From a virus: a DNA stretch of 64,000 bases. Shown here one piece after another: positions 4,092 through 63,793 of this stretch. How positions within the stretch are numbered: position 1 is the first letter of the stretch; every line of letters starts with the position of its first letter. The position numbers were made by a program, and so were the translations under genes. The DNA is taken from the IMG/VR virus record IMGVR_UViG_3300036940_000232; one strand, written 5' to 3'. A model generated the notes under the pieces. It was not told the origin of the DNA. It worked only from the letters and a program-made list of their open reading frames with translations, and did not search any database.

Positions 4092-4449
4092 TTATCTCAC
4101 CTGTAATTTGTAATAATTCTCCAGAAGTTGCTATCTTTACTGTTGCAGAAATACTTACAGACTTTCCAGATTGCCTAACAACCTTAATATCTGTGACTTC
4201 CTTATATCTGGAATCTTTCAATATTGCTTGTTTAACTGTATATTTAATAAAGTTAGGAGAAGGATTGTATCCTAATATATCCTGTAATCTTGTCCCAAAT
4301 GTTGGGTACAATTTATTCTCGCCAACAAATGTATTTAAAATGATTTGGATATTTTGTTCCAGATTTTCCTCTCCATGTAGTATTTCAATATTCTTTGTAT
4401 CTGGGTTATAATTAAAATCAAAATCATCTGTTAATAAGATTGACATCAC
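4084..4449 (-). CDS. Baseplate wedge subunit (gp25/W/DUF2634-like)
   Basis: 121 aa with L.Q.I...L.T..GE...P.FG pattern, directly upstream of baseplate J. Confidence 0.8.
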   Translation of the reverse strand: MMSILLTDDFDFNYNPDTKNIEILHGEENLEQNIQIILNTFVGENKLYPTFGTRLQDILGYNPSPNFIKYTVKQAILKDSRYKEVTDIKVVRQSGKSVSISATVKIATSGELLQITGEING

Positions 4450-4937
4450 ATTGCTCCTATATCATCGCTTGTTAGGTCTTCACCTTCAGCAGTTATTGTA
4501 TCTCCAGTCATAATAATATCGCCGCCGGCAATAGTTATAACTCCCTCTGAATCTATACTTATACTCGATCCGCCGTTTTGAATTCTGATTGTATCACTCT
4601 GTAAATTAATAACTTCAGATGGCGCTCTTACTTGTCCTAAAATAATAGGATTTTTTAATTTAAAGCTATTACATGTAATAATAACTCTATCTCCTACATT
4701 AAAAGTTGGCATGATATATGAGCTATCACTTAAACATGGCGTCATAACACGACAATTCTCAAGTGTTAAATCATTTAAACTTGGTACAGAAACGCTTATT
4801 ACTGCAGATTCTTCATTAATAGTTTCAATAACAGCTTCATATGTTCCAAAGAATTCATTATTGAACACTTTACGAATCATCGACTGTATAGATTTTTTAA
4901 TATCTGTAACGACTGCTTCTTTACTTCTTGGTTTCAT
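4446..4937 (-). CDS. Baseplate spike protein (gpV/Gp138-like)
   Basis: N-terminal OB-fold pattern (P...VGDRV.I) plus C-terminal beta-repeat; expected synteny. Confidence 0.75.
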   Translation of the reverse strand: MKPRSKEAVVTDIKKSIQSMIRKVFNNEFFGTYEAVIETINEESAVISVSVPSLNDLTLENCRVMTPCLSDSSYIMPTFNVGDRVIITCNSFKLKNPIILGQVRAPSEVINLQSDTIRIQNGGSSISIDSEGVITIAGGDIIMTGDTITAEGEDLTSDDIGAM

Positions 4938-5851
4938 GCCTCTTCCTCTGATACAGGTATAGCTCTATAAGCTAAAACTTTCATCTCGTATCCGCTTGAT
5001 ATAGTTATTTCATGTGTAACTTCTTCGACTTTATATACTTCTTCATCAAATCGAATAAGACCGCCGGCCTCAACCTTAGGTGTTCCAAATATTTCAAAGT
5101 ATATATAATATAATTGCCCTTCTATTTTAGATGTAGAATCTTTAAACTTAAAAACTTCATCAGTTACGAATGTATTTACATATACATCTTCTTGAATAAA
5201 ATCCTCATCAGCAGAATAAAATATCAAATTCTGTTGGTTCTGTATTCTCATACGAATAGGTTTAGATGTCTCATCTTTTATTAGCTCGATAATTTCATCC
5301 GCCACTTCATATGCGGTTTTACCTTCTGTTGTGATAAAGTTACTGAACTCTGTATCTGCAGTATATTCTGGAATTTGACAGTATACATCTGTAAATCCGT
5401 ATGTTGAAACTAACGCAAAATAATCAGATAATGATCCTATCTTTTTATAATCAGGATTAGTAATTTTAGATTTAGTAAATAAATATCTTTCTAAACGGTC
5501 ACCTTTGAGTTCCCATTTAGTATTCATCCCATCGATTGTATATGATACATCATTTATTCGTACATATTGCCAACCTGACCATAATGTAGAATCACCAGAC
5601 CATCCAAAATTATACTGTAAATAATCTCCTTCGACTATTACAGTATTATCTGGTAGATTCCACAATGTGAGTGTAAAAGTATCAGTTGAAGAGTCAATAT
5701 GGTCATATAACTTTAACTCGATATCTACAACTTCATTATCGATTTTTAAAGTTTGGTATTGGTCTACTTGTGGTGGCTCATCAACTGATGTAACTTCCTC
5801 GATTATATCGTGAATAATTTCTACTTTAATCTCACAAAAATCCAATACCAT
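4934..5851 (-). CDS. Baseplate hub protein
   Basis: 305 aa upstream of the spike; TFTLTLWNLP and G.P....GG.I...YKVEEVTH patterns. Confidence 0.65.
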   Translation of the reverse strand: MVLDFCEIKVEIIHDIIEEVTSVDEPPQVDQYQTLKIDNEVVDIELKLYDHIDSSTDTFTLTLWNLPDNTVIVEGDYLQYNFGWSGDSTLWSGWQYVRINDVSYTIDGMNTKWELKGDRLERYLFTKSKITNPDYKKIGSLSDYFALVSTYGFTDVYCQIPEYTADTEFSNFITTEGKTAYEVADEIIELIKDETSKPIRMRIQNQQNLIFYSADEDFIQEDVYVNTFVTDEVFKFKDSTSKIEGQLYYIYFEIFGTPKVEAGGLIRFDEEVYKVEEVTHEITISSGYEMKVLAYRAIPVSEEEA

Positions 5852-9990: not shown

Positions 9991-10396
9991 CTACCAATTC
10001 TTTTGAATCTGGTGAAGCTCCACTAATCTCACGTACAAAATCTGCAAGTGCGGTAATGCCAGATAACTGTTTGACCTGTTCTACCGTAAGGCCAACGTCT
10101 GTAAAGTCTTCCATTGCCTTGCATACAATATACGCATTGACTTCTGTTGAAGCTTTAAGGATTTCTCCCATCATGACACCTTCTGGAAGATCATCTTCAG
10201 AAGTTGACTCACCCATGTGCATCATATATTTCTTTGTGACTGGATCGGTAATTGCATCAAATGCAAGTGCGTCTGCTTCATTAAGTTCTAAGTCTGTAAG
10301 CGGTCTAACGTATACTGTTCCTGCAGGAAGTTCATATTCCTTTACAACAGATTTTCCTTTCTGAATTAATTCGTTAATGTTAAAATAAGTTTTCAT
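9974..10396 (-). CDS. Tail assembly chaperone (G-like)
   Basis: Acidic 140 aa between the tube and tape measure genes. Confidence 0.75.
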   Translation of the reverse strand: MKTYFNINELIQKGKSVVKEYELPAGTVYVRPLTDLELNEADALAFDAITDPVTKKYMMHMGESTSEDDLPEGVMMGEILKASTEVNAYIVCKAMEDFTDVGLTVEQVKQLSGITALADFVREISGASPDSKELVEDFRE

Positions 10397-10438
10397 AATG
10401 TTTCCTCCAAAAATTATTTAAAAAAAAGGTGAGTAAGC

Positions 10439-10906
10439 TTACTCGCTTACTGCAGCCTTTGAATCGATTGTGTCACTACCAAGGTTGGTTGCAACAGTCT
10501 TAAGTGCTATTCCACTGAATGACATTGTAGCTACGCCACCTTCATTCGTGATGTCTACAGGTGTTGCATTTGTAAAGTAACAATCTTCCCATGCTACCTC
10601 ATCAAATGTCCACTGATCCAGATCTGGCTTTGAGTTAACGATTCCAATTGAGAATCTTCCTCTGTTAATTGCAGTTGCATACATCTCGCGCATTACATCT
10701 GCATTAACTCCCTTAACGGTAAAGTCAAATGTAAATCTTTCGTTCTGAGCTGCGACACCAATGTTCGCTTCTTCTATTGAGTCAATAATCTCGAATGGTA
10801 AATCAGATGTAGGTGAGAAATTCTCAATCGGTGTGATTGGCATTTCATCGCCATCTACAGTTCTGAATCTAACTCCAAGTCTTGTTGTAACTTCGTAATC
10901 AACCAT
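10439..10906 (-). CDS. Tail tube protein
   Basis: 155 aa beta-rich protein directly after the sheath gene. Confidence 0.75.
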   Translation of the reverse strand: MVDYEVTTRLGVRFRTVDGDEMPITPIENFSPTSDLPFEIIDSIEEANIGVAAQNERFTFDFTVKGVNADVMREMYATAINRGRFSIGIVNSKPDLDQWTFDEVAWEDCYFTNATPVDITNEGGVATMSFSGIALKTVATNLGSDTIDSKAAVSE

Positions 10907-10916
10907 TTATATCACC

Positions 10917-11996
10917 TTATGCTGTAAACTTAAGATCAACATCGATTGAGTGGATTGAACCTGCATATTCTACGCTGATTGATACATCAACATTTCTTGT
11001 AGTTCTTGCTGTCGTAATCAGTGTGTCTTCTGCCGCGCTTCTTGATGCTGCGTCTTTTGCCAGTGCATTTGCTACTGGAATACTGATTGTGAATGATTCA
11101 AACTCGCCAGCATTTACTGCAACCTGTAAGATACCTGAGATCTTATTAATCAGTGATGCCATACCGACTCTGTTAATCTGTAACCCACCAATTACTGTAG
11201 GTGATGTTAAGTTTGCTTTAAGTTTGTATACTATGTCATCGATAGTTCTACGCACGTCAAGGAAATAAATTCCGTCTGCTACAGCTCCCATTGTATATGC
11301 TGACTCAAGTGCAAGACCTGAACCTGCCAGATACAGTGGATCAATCACTGGATTAAGATGTGCTGCTACGAGCGCTGTTCTCTGTGCTGTTGTGAATTCT
11401 GCTGTCTGTGTGATACCAGAAATTCCTCTGAGGATTGGTGACTGCCATGGATTGATAGACACGATAAGTCCTGCAACTGCTGCTGCGACATCGTTGTCTG
11501 AGTTATGTGCAATACCGAATACTCTGTCTTCAGATGCAGTCAGAAGTCCAGTTACTGCTGATGGTGCTGTTGAAGCGTCTTCTCCGCTGTCAAGCATGAA
11601 TACACCAATACGTTCTGTGACTGCTGCATTTACGTGATCCAGAAGTTCTTCTGAAACGTATGCGTCTGTATCTGTCTCTACTGTGTTTGCTACAACGACG
11701 ACCTGAATATCTTTTTCTGCTAACAGACCAAGCCCAGTTCCAACTGTTGTAGTTGTCTTTGTGTCTCCTATATCAACGATCCAAACCTTTGCTGCGCCGT
11801 TCTGGAATGCCAGTTTTGCTGCGAGTGAAAGGTCACAATCAGTTGCGTATAATGCATCTACTTCAGCAGGTGAGCCTACGAGTAAGGCTTCAGTCATAGC
11901 TGATGTACCTACACCAACAATTCCGACTGTACCAGTGTCTCTAATTGAAACGCCAGCGAGTTCAGATACGTCGACTGTTACATTAACAAATGCCAT
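10917..11996 (-). CDS. Contractile tail sheath protein (compact)
   Basis: TGTVGIVG, AKLAFQNGA.KVW, HLNPV and C-terminal L.VRRTID.I motifs of sheath proteins. Confidence 0.85.
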   Translation of the reverse strand: MAFVNVTVDVSELAGVSIRDTGTVGIVGVGTSAMTEALLVGSPAEVDALYATDCDLSLAAKLAFQNGAAKVWIVDIGDTKTTTTVGTGLGLLAEKDIQVVVVANTVETDTDAYVSEELLDHVNAAVTERIGVFMLDSGEDASTAPSAVTGLLTASEDRVFGIAHNSDNDVAAAVAGLIVSINPWQSPILRGISGITQTAEFTTAQRTALVAAHLNPVIDPLYLAGSGLALESAYTMGAVADGIYFLDVRRTIDDIVYKLKANLTSPTVIGGLQINRVGMASLINKISGILQVAVNAGEFESFTISIPVANALAKDAASRSAAEDTLITTARTTRNVDVSISVEYAGSIHSIDVDLKFTA

Positions 11997-60035: not shown

Positions 60036-60086
60036 TCTGGCAAGTTTATAAGTAAAAAATCGAAAACAATTTGGAGGAATTATTAA

Positions 60087-60959
60087 ATGGTAAGAAAAAT
60101 TTCAGTATCAAAGATGGGTAGCGCAGGAACAGAAGTAGAGATCACAGGGAAGCCAACATACAGGCAGATTGTTGCAGCCGCAGGATTCAGCACATTCAAG
60201 GCAATCATGGCCAACACACTTGGTTATGTAAACCCTGATCACGAAGTTGACGATTCAGTCACCATGCTTGTCCTTGCAGCACCTAAGTTCGATGCAGGAT
60301 ATGGGGCAATCCCATCCATTGAGGTTGAGGATGATGACGGAAACGTTTATACTCTCACTCCATCAGAACCAGTACCTGCAGAGCCAGAGCCAACTGCAAC
60401 AGCAGTAGCTGCAGCTCCAGCAACTAGAACAATCTCTGTATCAAAGATGGGAAGTTCCGGAACAACCGTAACAATCACATCAACAACAACATACAGACAG
60501 GCAGTTGCAATGGCTGGCTTCGAAACATTCAAGGCAATCATGTCCAATACCGGCGGATATGTAAACCCTGATGACGAAGTAGACCCAAGTGTAACAATGC
60601 TTGTACTTGCAGCACCTAAGTTCGACGCCGGCTACGGCGCCATTCCTTCCATCGAAGTCGAAGATGACGATGGGAATGTGTACACACTTACACCACAGGA
60701 GCCAGTTGCAACAGCAACAGCAACAGTAGCTGCACCTGCAGCAACCAGAACAATTTCCGTTTCAAAGATGGGAAGCTCTGGAACAACTGTCACAATTACA
60801 GCGACAACTACTTACAGGCAGGCAGTTGCGCTCGCAGGATTTGAGACATTCAAAGCAATCATGTCAAACACTGGCGGATACGTTAACCCAGACGATGAGG
60901 TTGACCCAAGTGTAACCATGCTTGTTCTTGCTGCACCAAAGTTCGACGCAGGAAACTAA
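60087..60959 (+). CDS. Tri-repeat ubiquitin-like (beta-grasp) precursor
   Basis: Three ~70-aa repeats, each ending LVLAAPKFDAG; two shared linkers; C-terminus DAG-N. Confidence 0.85.
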   Translation: MVRKISVSKMGSAGTEVEITGKPTYRQIVAAAGFSTFKAIMANTLGYVNPDHEVDDSVTMLVLAAPKFDAGYGAIPSIEVEDDDGNVYTLTPSEPVPAEPEPTATAVAAAPATRTISVSKMGSSGTTVTITSTTTYRQAVAMAGFETFKAIMSNTGGYVNPDDEVDPSVTMLVLAAPKFDAGYGAIPSIEVEDDDGNVYTLTPQEPVATATATVAAPAATRTISVSKMGSSGTTVTITATTTYRQAVALAGFETFKAIMSNTGGYVNPDDEVDPSVTMLVLAAPKFDAGN

Positions 60960-60992
60960 GTGAGCCGGAAGCCCCGCTCACTCTTTTATTTA
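60960..60992 (+). terminator. Hairpin plus T-rich tract between the Ubl and E2 genes
   Basis: GTGAGC...GCTCAC stem followed by TCTTTTATTT. Confidence 0.5.
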
Positions 60993-61004
60993 TAGGAGGT
61001 AAAT

Positions 61005-61712
61005 ATGCAAGCGCTTGAAGAACATATACAGACAGTAGAATCTGCAAACTCAGACAATTCTGCTGCAATACGAGAATACAAAATTATAGAATCAAGTCCA
61101 CACTTCCACGATGTAAAGATTGTGGAAGATAAAATAATCTTTACAACAGTGCCTATTCATCTGAATAGTCCAGCAGGAGATTCGCAGACAGTCAATCTTG
61201 GTCGCCTTGAGATTCACATTTATAAGAATGGAAATTACAGGGTATACAGAGATAGAACTTCAGATAGAGATCAAGATCTACCAAGGTCAGGAATTCATCC
61301 GCACGTTGGGTCTGGAAATTCAATATGTCAAGGTAATGCAAATGAGATGTCTCAACTTGCAACGGATAGACAACTTGCAATGCTTGCCACCTTTATCTAT
61401 GAGTTCCTACACCACTATAACATCAGCTCTCCATACTGGAAGCCATACTTCGCAGTGCCATGTATATCATGCGAACACAGAAATACCGCCAGATGCAATT
61501 TCTGCATATGCAATAACTGTGGCAACAGAAGAGGAGACAAGTGTATTGGATGCACTCAGAAGGGAATGACAACTGCAAATACTGCACACAGATATCTTGT
61601 AAGTATCCTTGAGAACAAGCGTTCAGAAGTAGATGAGGATGATTACATTGACTTTGCAGACAGACTTGCAGCATATATTAACAACAGAATGGAGGAGATC
61701 GATAATGTTTAG
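61005..61712 (+). CDS. Prokaryotic E2/UBC-like protein with C-terminal 8-Cys Zn domain
   Basis: HPHV.....ICQGN active-site motif; L..YN..SPY. Confidence 0.75.
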   Translation: MQALEEHIQTVESANSDNSAAIREYKIIESSPHFHDVKIVEDKIIFTTVPIHLNSPAGDSQTVNLGRLEIHIYKNGNYRVYRDRTSDRDQDLPRSGIHPHVGSGNSICQGNANEMSQLATDRQLAMLATFIYEFLHHYNISSPYWKPYFAVPCISCEHRNTARCNFCICNNCGNRRGDKCIGCTQKGMTTANTAHRYLVSILENKRSEVDEDDYIDFADRLAAYINNRMEEIDNV

Positions 61713-62556
61713 AATTTTTGTATTAGCTGAAGCATACGGTAAGATGCTCAGAATGCTTGACTTGATGGATAAAGAAATAGGTGCGCTCATGCTTGGACGC
61801 ATTCACAACGGTGACGCATATGTAGAGGATGTAGTTATCACAAAGCAAGGTGTAACTGGCGCATCCGTCGAGTTTGATGAGGAAGGAATTGACCTTGCAA
61901 CTATGAGAGCAATGGAACAGGGAAAGGTTGTAATTGGATGGTTCCACTCACACGTAAATATGAAGGCATTCTGGTCTGGAACAGATATGAAAACAATCAA
62001 TGACCTGATTGCTCATACTGAAGATTACCTAGTTTCAATCGTATCAAATAAGAAATACGAACATGTAGGGAGAATCGATTACTACGGACAGTCCACATTT
62101 GGAAGAGAGCGCCAGTTTGTAGACAATATCCCAGTAATCCCAGTACTCAATGATCCAGCTGAGTATGATGCCGAAATCAAAGCTGCAATTGCAGAGAATG
62201 TAACAGAAAAGTATATATACTACTCAAAAGGTAAGTATGGAAAGAATAAGGGTAGTAAAACTCATACAGTTATTCATGGCAATCAGTCAGTGTTTGACGA
62301 TAACGGTAAGTACAGAGGATACAGGAAAGATGAGTATGTTGACGACGAAGATGAATTAGGAGTCACATATCAGTTAACTGATGAAGAAATGGATGATATA
62401 CTTGAAGAGCTTAAACAGGAACAGCTAGAAGCTAAAATGGACAAGACAGCTATGCAATTCACAGAAGATGACGCTGAAGTTGCATGGAAAGAGATTGACA
62501 GACTCATGCTCTTAGGAATGTCAGAAGAACAAGCAAAAGCACTAGTACTTGGGTGA
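61705..62556 (+). CDS. JAB/MPN+ (JAMM) metallopeptidase
   Basis: E(IG)...HSH-x7-S-x2-D; start moved to MFRIF at 61705. Confidence 0.9.
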   Translation: MFRIFVLAEAYGKMLRMLDLMDKEIGALMLGRIHNGDAYVEDVVITKQGVTGASVEFDEEGIDLATMRAMEQGKVVIGWFHSHVNMKAFWSGTDMKTINDLIAHTEDYLVSIVSNKKYEHVGRIDYYGQSTFGRERQFVDNIPVIPVLNDPAEYDAEIKAAIAENVTEKYIYYSKGKYGKNKGSKTHTVIHGNQSVFDDNGKYRGYRKDEYVDDEDELGVTYQLTDEEMDDILEELKQEQLEAKMDKTAMQFTEDDAEVAWKEIDRLMLLGMSEEQAKALVLG

Positions 62557-63085: not shown

Positions 63086-63793
63086 ATGGCAGATGAAGAG
63101 ATTGAGGTTAATTACCTCAGACAATTAGATTGGTTTAATCCAACTACAATGGAAGCACCTACCGTTCATATTATTGGTTGTGGAGGAATCAATTCCTTTA
63201 CAGCTTTTTATCTTGCGCAGATGGGAATAAAGAAGCTTGTGCTTTGGGACTACGATGAAGTCGAAGAGCATAACATTCCAAACCAGAATTTCCTTTTGGA
63301 ACATATTGGAATGAAGAAGACGACCGCACTTGCAAAACTTATCAAAGATAAAGTAGGCATTGAAGTTAAAGTTAAGGATAGATTCTTCAGTGAAGATTCA
63401 AAAATTACTGACGACAATGCTATTGTGATTGTTGGTACCGATAACATCTCATCCAGAAAAACAGTGTATGAACACTGCAAAGGTAATGAGAAAGTAAAAA
63501 TGTTCATAGATGGTCGTCTAGGCGGACTTGCATTCAATATATTTACAATCAATCCGCACGAAGAATCTGACCAAGAACTCTACGAAGAAAACTTGTTCGA
63601 AGAAGGTGAATCAGACGGTCTTCCATGCACAGCGAAATCAATCATATTCGTTGGTGCTCACATTGGTGCACTTATTTGTCAGCAAGTATTTGCTATAATG
63701 ACTGAGCGCCCAGTTACGAAGAACGCATGTTATGATCACCTGAACAATCTTATTGATATAGATGGTAAGGCGATTATGTATGGTACAGCATAA
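63086..63793 (+). CDS. ThiF/E1-like adenylyltransferase
   Basis: RQ, IIGCGG, DYD.V..HN..NQ, K, GTDN..SR, DGR.G and candidate catalytic PCT. Confidence 0.9.
   Translation: MADEEIEVNYLRQLDWFNPTTMEAPTVHIIGCGGINSFTAFYLAQMGIKKLVLWDYDEVEEHNIPNQNFLLEHIGMKKTTALAKLIKDKVGIEVKVKDRFFSEDSKITDDNAIVIVGTDNISSRKTVYEHCKGNEKVKMFIDGRLGGLAFNIFTINPHEESDQELYEENLFEEGESDGLPCTAKSIIFVGAHIGALICQQVFAIMTERPVTKNACYDHLNNLIDIDGKAIMYGTA

Follow-up and report, generated by a model that had tools for sequence, protein, structure and literature searches.

Polyubiquitin genes are regarded as a hallmark of eukaryotes, while each multi-domain ubiquitin-like protein (Ubl) of prokaryotes has until now, to our knowledge, been described as one composite modifier. 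A study of 2006 predicted tandem Ubl domains next to E1, E2 and JAB peptidase genes and drew the comparison with polyubiquitin (PMC1779556). Structures of bacterial Ubls with three domains have been determined since then; in these Ubl3 proteins, as published, the domains differ from each other, the first two are tightly packed and give dimers and filaments bridged by Ca2+, and the whole is treated as one modifier (10.1101/2024.11.21.623966). As for viruses of archaea, the sole report that we found concerns E1-like homologues in Asgard viruses (10.1101/2021.07.29.454249). Herein we analyse a 64,000-nucleotide stretch of viral DNA, the IMG/VR record IMGVR_UViG_3300036940_000232 (hereafter the window), in which one gene encodes three tandem beta-grasp units that all end in the same glycine tail. 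This gene, named poly-Ubl here, opens a cassette of five genes on one strand, followed by those of an E2-like protein, a JAB peptidase, a protein X and a compact ThiF-type E1 (Table 1). The best-supported reading, to which we give a little better than an even chance on the strength of sequence comparison and structural models, is that poly-Ubl is a polyubiquitin-style precursor of a virus-encoded modifier and would be cut after the glycine of each unit. No paper describing this family was found in the literature.

Comparison with the described systems

The viral gene resembles the eukaryotic polyubiquitin genes (UBI4, UBB and UBC) in that its copies lie head to tail in one open reading frame (three here and two to five in the relatives), each copy ends in a tail with the conjugation glycine, the last one carries a short cap (Asn290), the protein is conserved nearly perfectly despite synonymous changes, and the copy number is variable; yeast UBI4 also ends in Asn. 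The copies, however, do not abut, being separated in this virus by conserved linkers of about 42 and 38 residues, and only in one relative with five units (P0007) does the next unit start just 3-4 residues past the glycine. Moreover, the tail is D-A-G or E-A-G and not R-G-G, homology to ubiquitin is not detectable, the nearest though weak similarity being to the SAMP2/ThiS-type beta-grasps, the predicted processing enzyme is the JAB of the same operon, and the carrier is a virus of prokaryotes.

Like the viral cassette, the bacterial ISG15-like BilABCD operons of types I and II (PMC10557695; 10.1101/2024.11.21.623966) hold separate genes for Ubl, E2, JAB and E1, with the reservation that the identity of the viral E2 is of moderate confidence. 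The viral E1, however, is a single adenylation domain of 235 residues, whereas the Bil E1 has about 450 residues with inactive, active and CYS domains, and the PADLOC match of the viral protein to BilD is partial (32.6 bits over about 100 residues, at positions 210-320 of 453). The viral E2-like protein and Ubl match no Bil model, gene X is extra, every unit is tailed, and the cassette sits in a virus genome and not in a bacterial defence island. The Ubl3 of Bil and Bub operons, as well as the class 6e poly-Ubl mlr6139 (10.1101/2024.11.21.623966; PMC1779556), share with it three beta-grasp domains beside E1, E2 and peptidase genes, but the viral units are nearly the same as one another, have long flexible linkers between them, and carry the full conserved tail each. 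The PRTRC or class 6d systems (PMC1779556; NCBIfam TIGR03736) are likewise mobile-element cassettes of a small Ubl, an E2-like protein, a JAB and a ThiF-like E1, though the viral Ubl is multi-unit and the viral JAB gives no match to the JAB-N module.

With the archaeal sampylation by SAMP2 (UbaA as E1, HvJAMM1 as desampylase) the locus has in common a ThiS/MoaD-like beta-grasp with C-terminal glycine, a compact ThiF-type E1 and a JAMM peptidase; the viral JAB shows a weak desampylase match, and all scores against SAMP-system models are below the family cut-offs. We know of no E2 in sampylation, nor of a multi-unit precursor of the SAMPs, which are single-domain proteins. Membership in several known classes was considered and rejected: that in PRTRC because the E1 scores 32.5 bits against a PRTRC_ThiF cut-off of 144.75, those in Bil and in the CBASS Cap2-type E1s on profile scores, and that in Bub by architecture, as in Bub operons the enzymes are fused and a DUF6527 protease is present (PMC11601596). 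From the known cassettes, the locus differs in its near-identical and fully tailed units, its minimal E1, its extra conserved gene and its viral location.

Three tailed units in one gene

The repeat is seen at the protein level only, since the units are just 73-82% identical in nucleotides; Tandem Repeats Finder reported no repeat in the DNA. In the translation, the ISVSKMG motif starts at residues 5, 116 and 223 and KFDAG ends at residues 71, 182 and 289, and all three cores are exactly 67 residues long from ISVSKMG to DAG, with the shared ending MLVLAAPKFDAG. Units 2 and 3 agree at 65 of the 67 residues (97%), and unit 1 is 81% identical to both. The residue next to the glycine is Y72, Y183 and N290, the last followed by the stop codon. 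Units 1 and 2 are followed by a 21-residue stretch, YGAIPSIEVEDDDGNVYTLTP, which is the same in both copies, and then by spacers of about 21 and 17 residues rich in Ala, Pro, Thr and Glu. The common tail with its following Y, Y and N, and the identical linker with its Ala/Pro/Thr spacer, had been noted in a preliminary description made from the letters of this DNA, and both are exact by the translation. With such an agreement of units 2 and 3, and with the multi-unit plan and the tail recurring in every homologue found, the three-unit repeat is, to judge by the sequences, far beyond chance.

The AlphaFold2 model shows the order beta-beta-alpha-beta-beta-beta three times, with a pLDDT (predicted score of the local distance difference test) of 65-87 in the units. 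In a Foldseek search it matched multi-ubiquitin proteins, linear tetra-ubiquitin and ISG15 (E 3e-5 to 1e-3, probability 0.9-1.0), as expected of a beta-grasp fold, the best matches being the bacterial multi-ubiquitin proteins 9d5a (the closest, E 3.2e-5), 8u38, 9cd2 and 9d5b, although the sequence identity to 9d5a and 8u38 is just 13-14%. By sequence, poly-Ubl has no match to the Pfam ubiquitin family, and the sole similarity at this level is a weak one to SAMP2, with a Pfam E-value of 0.0022 (18.8 bits, cut-off 27) and a PDB profile E-value of 0.0057; the NCBIfam SAMP2 model gives 15.5 bits where its cut-off is 70.

The tails deserve attention in their own right. Residues 66-83, 177-188 and 285-290, which are positioned after the last strand of their units, have pLDDT below 50 in the model, and the idea that each tail is a cutting site would have suffered if the internal DAG sites had been buried; the predicted tails are instead flexible and exposed. 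Moreover, the window contains a tail-less paralogue of the unit, which matches the unit profile with an hhalign probability of 97.4% (E 1.2e-11) over unit positions 3-65 and ends exactly where the AAPKFDAG tail would start. As the tails are of low pLDDT and the paralogue ends before the tail, the Ubl fold probably does not need PKFDAG. The paralogue gene sits between the NAMPT and NMNAT genes, its stop overlapping the NMNAT start by one base; with its protein as query, tblastn matched poly-Ubl units only and found no counterpart in the other loci fetched. It may encode a non-conjugatable adaptor or regulator.

Conservation of the tail among relatives

An exhaustive HMMER search over 1.8 billion representative proteins returned nine relatives only, and word-indexed and DNA-pattern searches added few. 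Every complete member of the family is multi-unit, with two, three or five units, and no single-unit relative was found among short proteins by the profile, which had been built from single units. The unit alignment comprises 25 units of 9 proteins, 28-78% identical to unit 1, and 16 of these units are internal; unit 1 itself is orthologous to unit 1 of the relative P0003 (72% identity). Internal and terminal units alike have three core glycines, Pro66, Lys67 and Gly71 without exception (25/25), and the tail follows the consensus P-K-x-x-[A/G]-G, its penultimate residue being Ala or Gly in all 25. In contrast to the unit glycine, the residue behind it varies (Y, F, A, S, I, N, L or M), and the C-terminal caps are 1-3 unrelated residues (N, L, M, FN, SRL or ICE).

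The five-unit protein P0007 (L008, 6001-7617) has in addition two inserts of about 80 residues, at residues 77-156 and 233-311. Judged by eye they resemble degenerate beta-grasp units, and one of them ends in EDAAG, so that this protein may have seven units in all.

Selection on units, tails and linkers

The agreement among the copies is one of protein and not of DNA. For the 65 identical residues of units 2 and 3, the same codon is used at 32 and a synonymous one at 33, where random codon choice would give 28-34 shared codons. The same pattern is found in L002, with 62 of 67 residues identical between units and 28 synonymous differences. The tail codons too differ synonymously from unit to unit, and the 21-residue stretches of linkers 1 and 2 are identical at 21/21 residues while their codons differ at 18/21. 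As synonymous sites have been randomised while the protein stays identical, the sequences show that the copies are old and that the protein sequence of every unit, tail and linker hairpin has been actively maintained by long purifying selection. Furthermore, units 2 and 3 are 92-96% identical within one genome and 63-67% between genomes; the units track each other within each virus, as is expected if all of them must fit the same co-evolving enzymes.

Variation among strains gives a similar picture. In three other samples the poly-Ubl gene is covered by contigs of a strain about 96% identical to the window, once by a single piece, and free of indels throughout. Within the gene 13 strain differences are listed, and 12 of them fall on third codon positions; the remaining one, 60802 C>A, replaces an Ala of unit 3 by Glu. 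Strain length variation is confined to the Ala/Thr spacer of linker 2, where 6 bases are deleted at 60703 and a variant insert lies between 60708 and 60743.

Two further observations concern the repeat itself. In a subsurface metagenome (run X3) a contig of 4.8x coverage is 94% identical to unit 3 from 60759-60953 and continues with a YGAIPSIEVE linker and not with Asn and stop; the 6-base spacer deletion comes from the same sample, and there may be strains with four units or with units homogenised in another way. A further idea considered was that selection disfavours identical DNA in the repeats. Of the 21 linker codons only 3 are shared where 9-10 are expected (P about 0.001-0.005), and between the whole units 2 and 3 the count is 39 where 48.8 is expected (P 0.03), but the effect is absent in L002, L001 and L005, and for this reason the idea was dropped.

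Model of the JAB with an internal junction

The complex was modelled with JAB residues 1-175 and Zn on one side, and on the other unit 2 with its following linker, that is, an internal site. The model scored 0.82 against 0.01 for the best control, with an agreement between runs of at least 53% of contacts and a partner pLDDT of at least 77; a mark of 0.82 is reached by 58 of 80 solved complexes and by 2 of 110 mismatched pairs. JAB residues E24, H81, H83 and S91-D94 contact Ubl residues 62-73 and 75 in segment numbering, and the interface spans the internal Gly71-Tyr72 bond of the segment (Gly182-Tyr183 of the protein), with the tail A-P-K-F-D-A-G and the residues just past the glycine lying along the catalytic groove. 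Such a pass may partly reflect likeness to solved JAB-Ubl complexes, and it supports binding rather than cutting.

Cutting of this kind has precedents. BilC cuts BilA after a conserved glycine that is followed by one last residue, and it acts on a BilA-GFP fusion as well, cutting it after this glycine (PMC10557695); the JAB of BubCD frees a Ubl from a Ubl-E2 fusion (PMC11601596). The preliminary description had proposed that the JAB could release three mature Ubls by cleavage after each glycine, and this part is favoured by the invariant internal tails, their predicted flexibility, the JAB model and the Bil and Bub precedents, a support of comparative and modelling nature. Its analogy to polyubiquitin holds for the tail on every unit and fails for the linkers, which are long and conserved and would stay on units 2 and 3, while polyubiquitin has no spacers.

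In the mechanism that we propose, the JAB would cut the peptide bond after Gly71, Gly182 and Gly289, whereby the Asn cap would be lost, unit 1 freed bare, and units 2 and 3 released with the preceding hairpin linker at their N-terminus. The E1 would then adenylate each freed glycine carboxylate, and the unit would pass to Cys108 of the E2-like protein and from there to lysines of its targets, perhaps host or virion proteins. With three units per translation, and with a stem-loop and T-tract standing before the enzyme genes, the modifier would become more abundant than the enzymes.

Weighing of the readings

Several points weigh against a precursor that is cut into single units. The AlphaFold2 model is only moderately confident as a whole, with a mean pLDDT of 63, and the E2 assignment rests on a motif and weak fold matches (Z < 8). 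The linker is as strongly conserved as the units, which is odd for a disposable spacer, and cutting after the glycines only would leave on units 2 and 3, unlike polyubiquitin, an N-terminal extension of about 40 residues that unit 1 does not have. In addition, ISG15 and FAT10, both modifiers of several beta-grasp domains, are conjugated whole. For multi-domain Ubls of bacteria, conjugation as one piece is likewise the known rule (10.1101/2024.11.21.623966), and class 6e operons have one to three tandem Ubl domains (PMC1779556). In the main rival reading the JAB would remove the terminal Asn only and the three-unit protein would be conjugated via Gly289, or serve as a ready-made linear chain for multivalent binding; purifying selection on the linker hairpin is what one expects if it is part of the mature protein, and the solved structure nearest to the model is 9d5a, a multi-ubiquitin protein of bacteria. 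Even so, we hold a modifier used as a whole array to be rather unlikely, as it leaves the invariant tail of all 16 internal units unexplained, given that a tail-less paralogue exists. Moreover, AlphaFold2 predicts no packing between the domains (the predicted template modelling score, pTM, is 0.29, and linkers and tails are below pLDDT 50), unlike the tightly packed and differing domains of Ubl3 (10.1101/2024.11.21.623966), the unit number goes from 2 to 5 with unchanged enzymes, and in the complex model an internal junction fits into the groove of the JAB.

The weak SAMP2 match as the sole sequence similarity, together with an E1 that scores best against ThiF/MoeB models and an E2 assignment that is not firm, could also point away from conjugation. 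Poly-Ubl might then be a decoy, inhibitor or carrier, for instance one that soaks up or misdirects a host SAMP/ThiS-type E1 and JAMM, or a ThiS/MoaD-like sulphur carrier for a ThiF-type enzyme. We consider this improbable: the cassette always includes a protein whose invariant HPH...C motif stands where an E2 has its active site, on a UBC/RWD-like predicted fold, and a catalytically complete JAB, which is the gene content of conjugation and not of a sulphur-transfer pair (PMC1779556), and neither the window nor the relatives' loci have sulphur-metabolism genes near the cassette. That tails and linkers are alike merely because the copies have not yet diverged after a recent duplication is hardly credible. 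The higher identity of units 2 and 3 within than between genomes does indicate duplication or homogenisation per lineage, but their synonymous sites are already random in two lineages, which contradicts a recent origin, and the tail is invariant across a family at 28-50% identity.

Coming back to the precursor cut after each glycine, the linker hairpin might be a recognition element of the JAB beyond the cut site, as in the complex model Tyr72, Gly73, Ile75 and residues 90-92 are contacted, or else a functional appendage. Its motif, G-A-[IL]-P..[VIL].D[DE][DN]G.[EV][YW], is kept in relatives just 33-47% identical, and AlphaFold2 predicts the hairpin at low confidence. The acidic EDDDG turn had also been suggested to bind metal or to drive filament formation. 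This found no support, for the conserved [D/N]-G fits a plain beta-turn, and in the known bacterial Ubl3 filaments the Ca2+ sites lie within packed beta-grasp domains and not in linkers (10.1101/2024.11.21.623966).

The five-gene cassette and its enzymes

The gene order of poly-Ubl, E2-like protein, JAB, X and E1 is kept in seven independent relatives where the flanking DNA sufficed (L001, L002-L004, L005, L007, L008, L009/L010 and L011/L012), and the enzyme sizes are near constant across the cassettes while the unit number changes between 2, 3 and 5. The coordinates of all features in the window are collected in Table 1.

Table 1. Features of the poly-Ubl locus, in positions of the window
Feature	Position	Strand	Basis
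Poly-Ubl gene, 290 aa: three tandem beta-grasp units, Asn cap and stop	60087-60959	+	Open reading frame and translation, AlphaFold2, Foldseek
Unit 1, residues 1-71, PKFDAG end at Gly71	60087-60299	+	Translation, unit alignment
Linker 1: 21-aa hairpin motif (60300-60362), then Ala/Pro/Thr/Glu spacer	60300-60425	+	
Unit 2, residues 114-182, PKFDAG end at Gly182	60426-60632	+	Translation, unit alignment
Linker 2: 21-aa hairpin motif (60633-60695), then Ala/Thr/Pro spacer	60633-60746	+	
Unit 3, residues 221-289, PKFDAG end at Gly289, with cap Asn290	60747-60956	+	
Stem-loop (60959-60982) and T-rich tract, candidate terminator or attenuator between Ubl and enzyme genes	60959-60994	+	
E2-like protein, 235 aa, invariant HPHV..ICQG (Cys108), eight invariant C-terminal cysteines	61005-61712	+	Alignment A3
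JAB/JAMM metallopeptidase, motif E24, H81, H83, S91, D94	61705-62556	+	Pfam, PADLOC; start inferred from orthologs
Protein X, 173 aa	62562-63083	+	Gene order in L001, L002, L008, L011, L012
Compact ThiF-type E1, 235 aa, GCGG nucleotide loop, invariant LPCTAKS (Cys181)	63086-63793	+	Pfam ThiF E 3.7e-20, alignment A4
Tail-less Ubl-unit paralogue, 67 aa	56222-56425	+	hhalign against unit profile A1

The JAB exceeds the Pfam cut-offs for Prok-JAB (E 6.9e-7, 29.6 bits against 25) and JAB (E 5.3e-5), matches the JAB of PADLOC, and has the complete JAMM motif E ... HxH x7 S xx D, of which E24, H81-S82-H83, S91 and D94 are invariant in three orthologs (alignment A5). For the E1, the best NCBIfam match is ThiF, with 75.6 bits at a cut-off of 159. 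Poly-Ubl, the E2-like protein and protein X found nothing above cut-off in Pfam, PHROGs, PADLOC and NCBIfam, and ESM Atlas feature searches with the latter two led to unnamed viral clusters only (0.85-0.90).

The second protein of the cassette is called E2-like with moderate confidence, from its motif and its predicted fold. HPHV-x(4-5)-ICQG is invariant in the ortholog alignment. The fold, predicted at low confidence (pLDDT 51), consists of a helix, a four-strand meander, a loop and helices, and residues 13-150 match UBC/RWD folds only, at Z 5.2-6.7, which is below the safe level: Ubc9 at Z 6.2 (root-mean-square deviation 3.3 over 99 residues), RWD domains at 6.1-6.7, and Ube2K and UbcH10 at 5.3-5.4. 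At its C-terminus stands a cysteine cluster, CxxC-x7-CxxCxCxxC-x7-CxxC (window 61461-61553, + strand), that resembles a treble-clef or RING/PHD-like module with two zincs; this one protein may unite the function of an E2 with an E3-like one. With the E2-like protein as phmmer query, the PDB yielded only a match at chance level (E about 1), between its cysteine cluster and the PHD finger of UHRF1.

Protein X is found in every complete cassette, with 171-179 residues and always between JAB and E1. No family, fold or Atlas lead was obtained for it, and it is a candidate adaptor, E3 or target. Some cassettes have an extra small gene, namely one of 139 residues between X and E1 in L001 (6651-7070) and one of 157 residues between poly-Ubl and the E2-like gene in L007 (471-944), with no family match on record for either. 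In L011, IS605 OrfB/TnpB (Cas12f-like) genes flank the cassette on both sides (4386-5558 and 10031-11173), and the cassette might move there as a unit.

Signals around the poly-Ubl gene

Behind the poly-Ubl gene, the stem-loop with its T-tract folds at -15.3 kcal/mol (z = -2.97), and 1 of 200 shuffled sequences folds equally well. It was revealed by folding, while the scanner for sigma-70 and terminator consensus made no call for the hairpin on the + strand. A stem-loop and T-tract stand at the equivalent position in four lineages (L002/L003, L001, L005 and L007) with four different stem sequences, and this conservation of position speaks for a conserved element that acts as terminator, as attenuator or in RNA stability. 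Hence the hairpin and T-tract proposed earlier for this place are real, with their position held in the four lineages, whereas a level of Ubl raised above that of the enzymes is the inferred part of that proposal.

In front of the gene there is a TTTATAAG element about 40 bases before the start, together with a GGAGG ribosome-binding site (window 60040-60086, + strand), which would agree with the gene having its own promoter of the archaeal TATA type. It is not conserved in L002, whose upstream gene runs right up to poly-Ubl.

The virus and its relatives

The window is a genome of a tailed virus, with genes for large terminase, portal, major head protein, tape measure and baseplate wedge, and it carries NAD-salvage and RNA-repair genes as well. 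Metagenomes from about 20 studies, with oil fields, the subsurface, bioreactors and wastewater as sources, contain its DNA or DNA that has about 40% of the sampled words in common with it, and one of the poly-Ubl relatives lies on a contig binned as Methanosarcina. The habitat and this binned contig suggest an archaeal host, a methanogen. The contigs of the relatives are large, up to 128 kb, with the same CCA-adding enzyme and NAD-salvage genes, and appear to be kin of this virus. Searches by blastn and tblastn against 50,697 phage records gave no match, and a pattern scan of IMG/VR gave no confirmed relative; among the virus records compared, the nearest is G001, a fragment of 52% completeness that lacks the poly-Ubl gene.

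Implications

Taken as a whole, these results leave room for a broader picture, to which we give somewhat less than an even chance: large tailed viruses of methanogenic habitats, probably archaeal ones, would have evolved the polyubiquitin strategy independently, with two to five identical tags freed from each precursor by a viral JAB and attached by a minimal E1 and a zinc-finger-tailed E2 to host or virion proteins, as an offensive use of the defensive Bil chemistry. Host proteins tagged in this way might be fed to the archaeal proteasome. The compact system, with its E1 of 235 residues and predicted products of distinct sizes, is attractive for reconstitution, and it bears on whether viruses of prokaryotes use Ubl tagging, either against their hosts or in building the virion. 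If the reading is true, the strategy of obtaining many tags from one precursor arose outside the eukaryotes as well.

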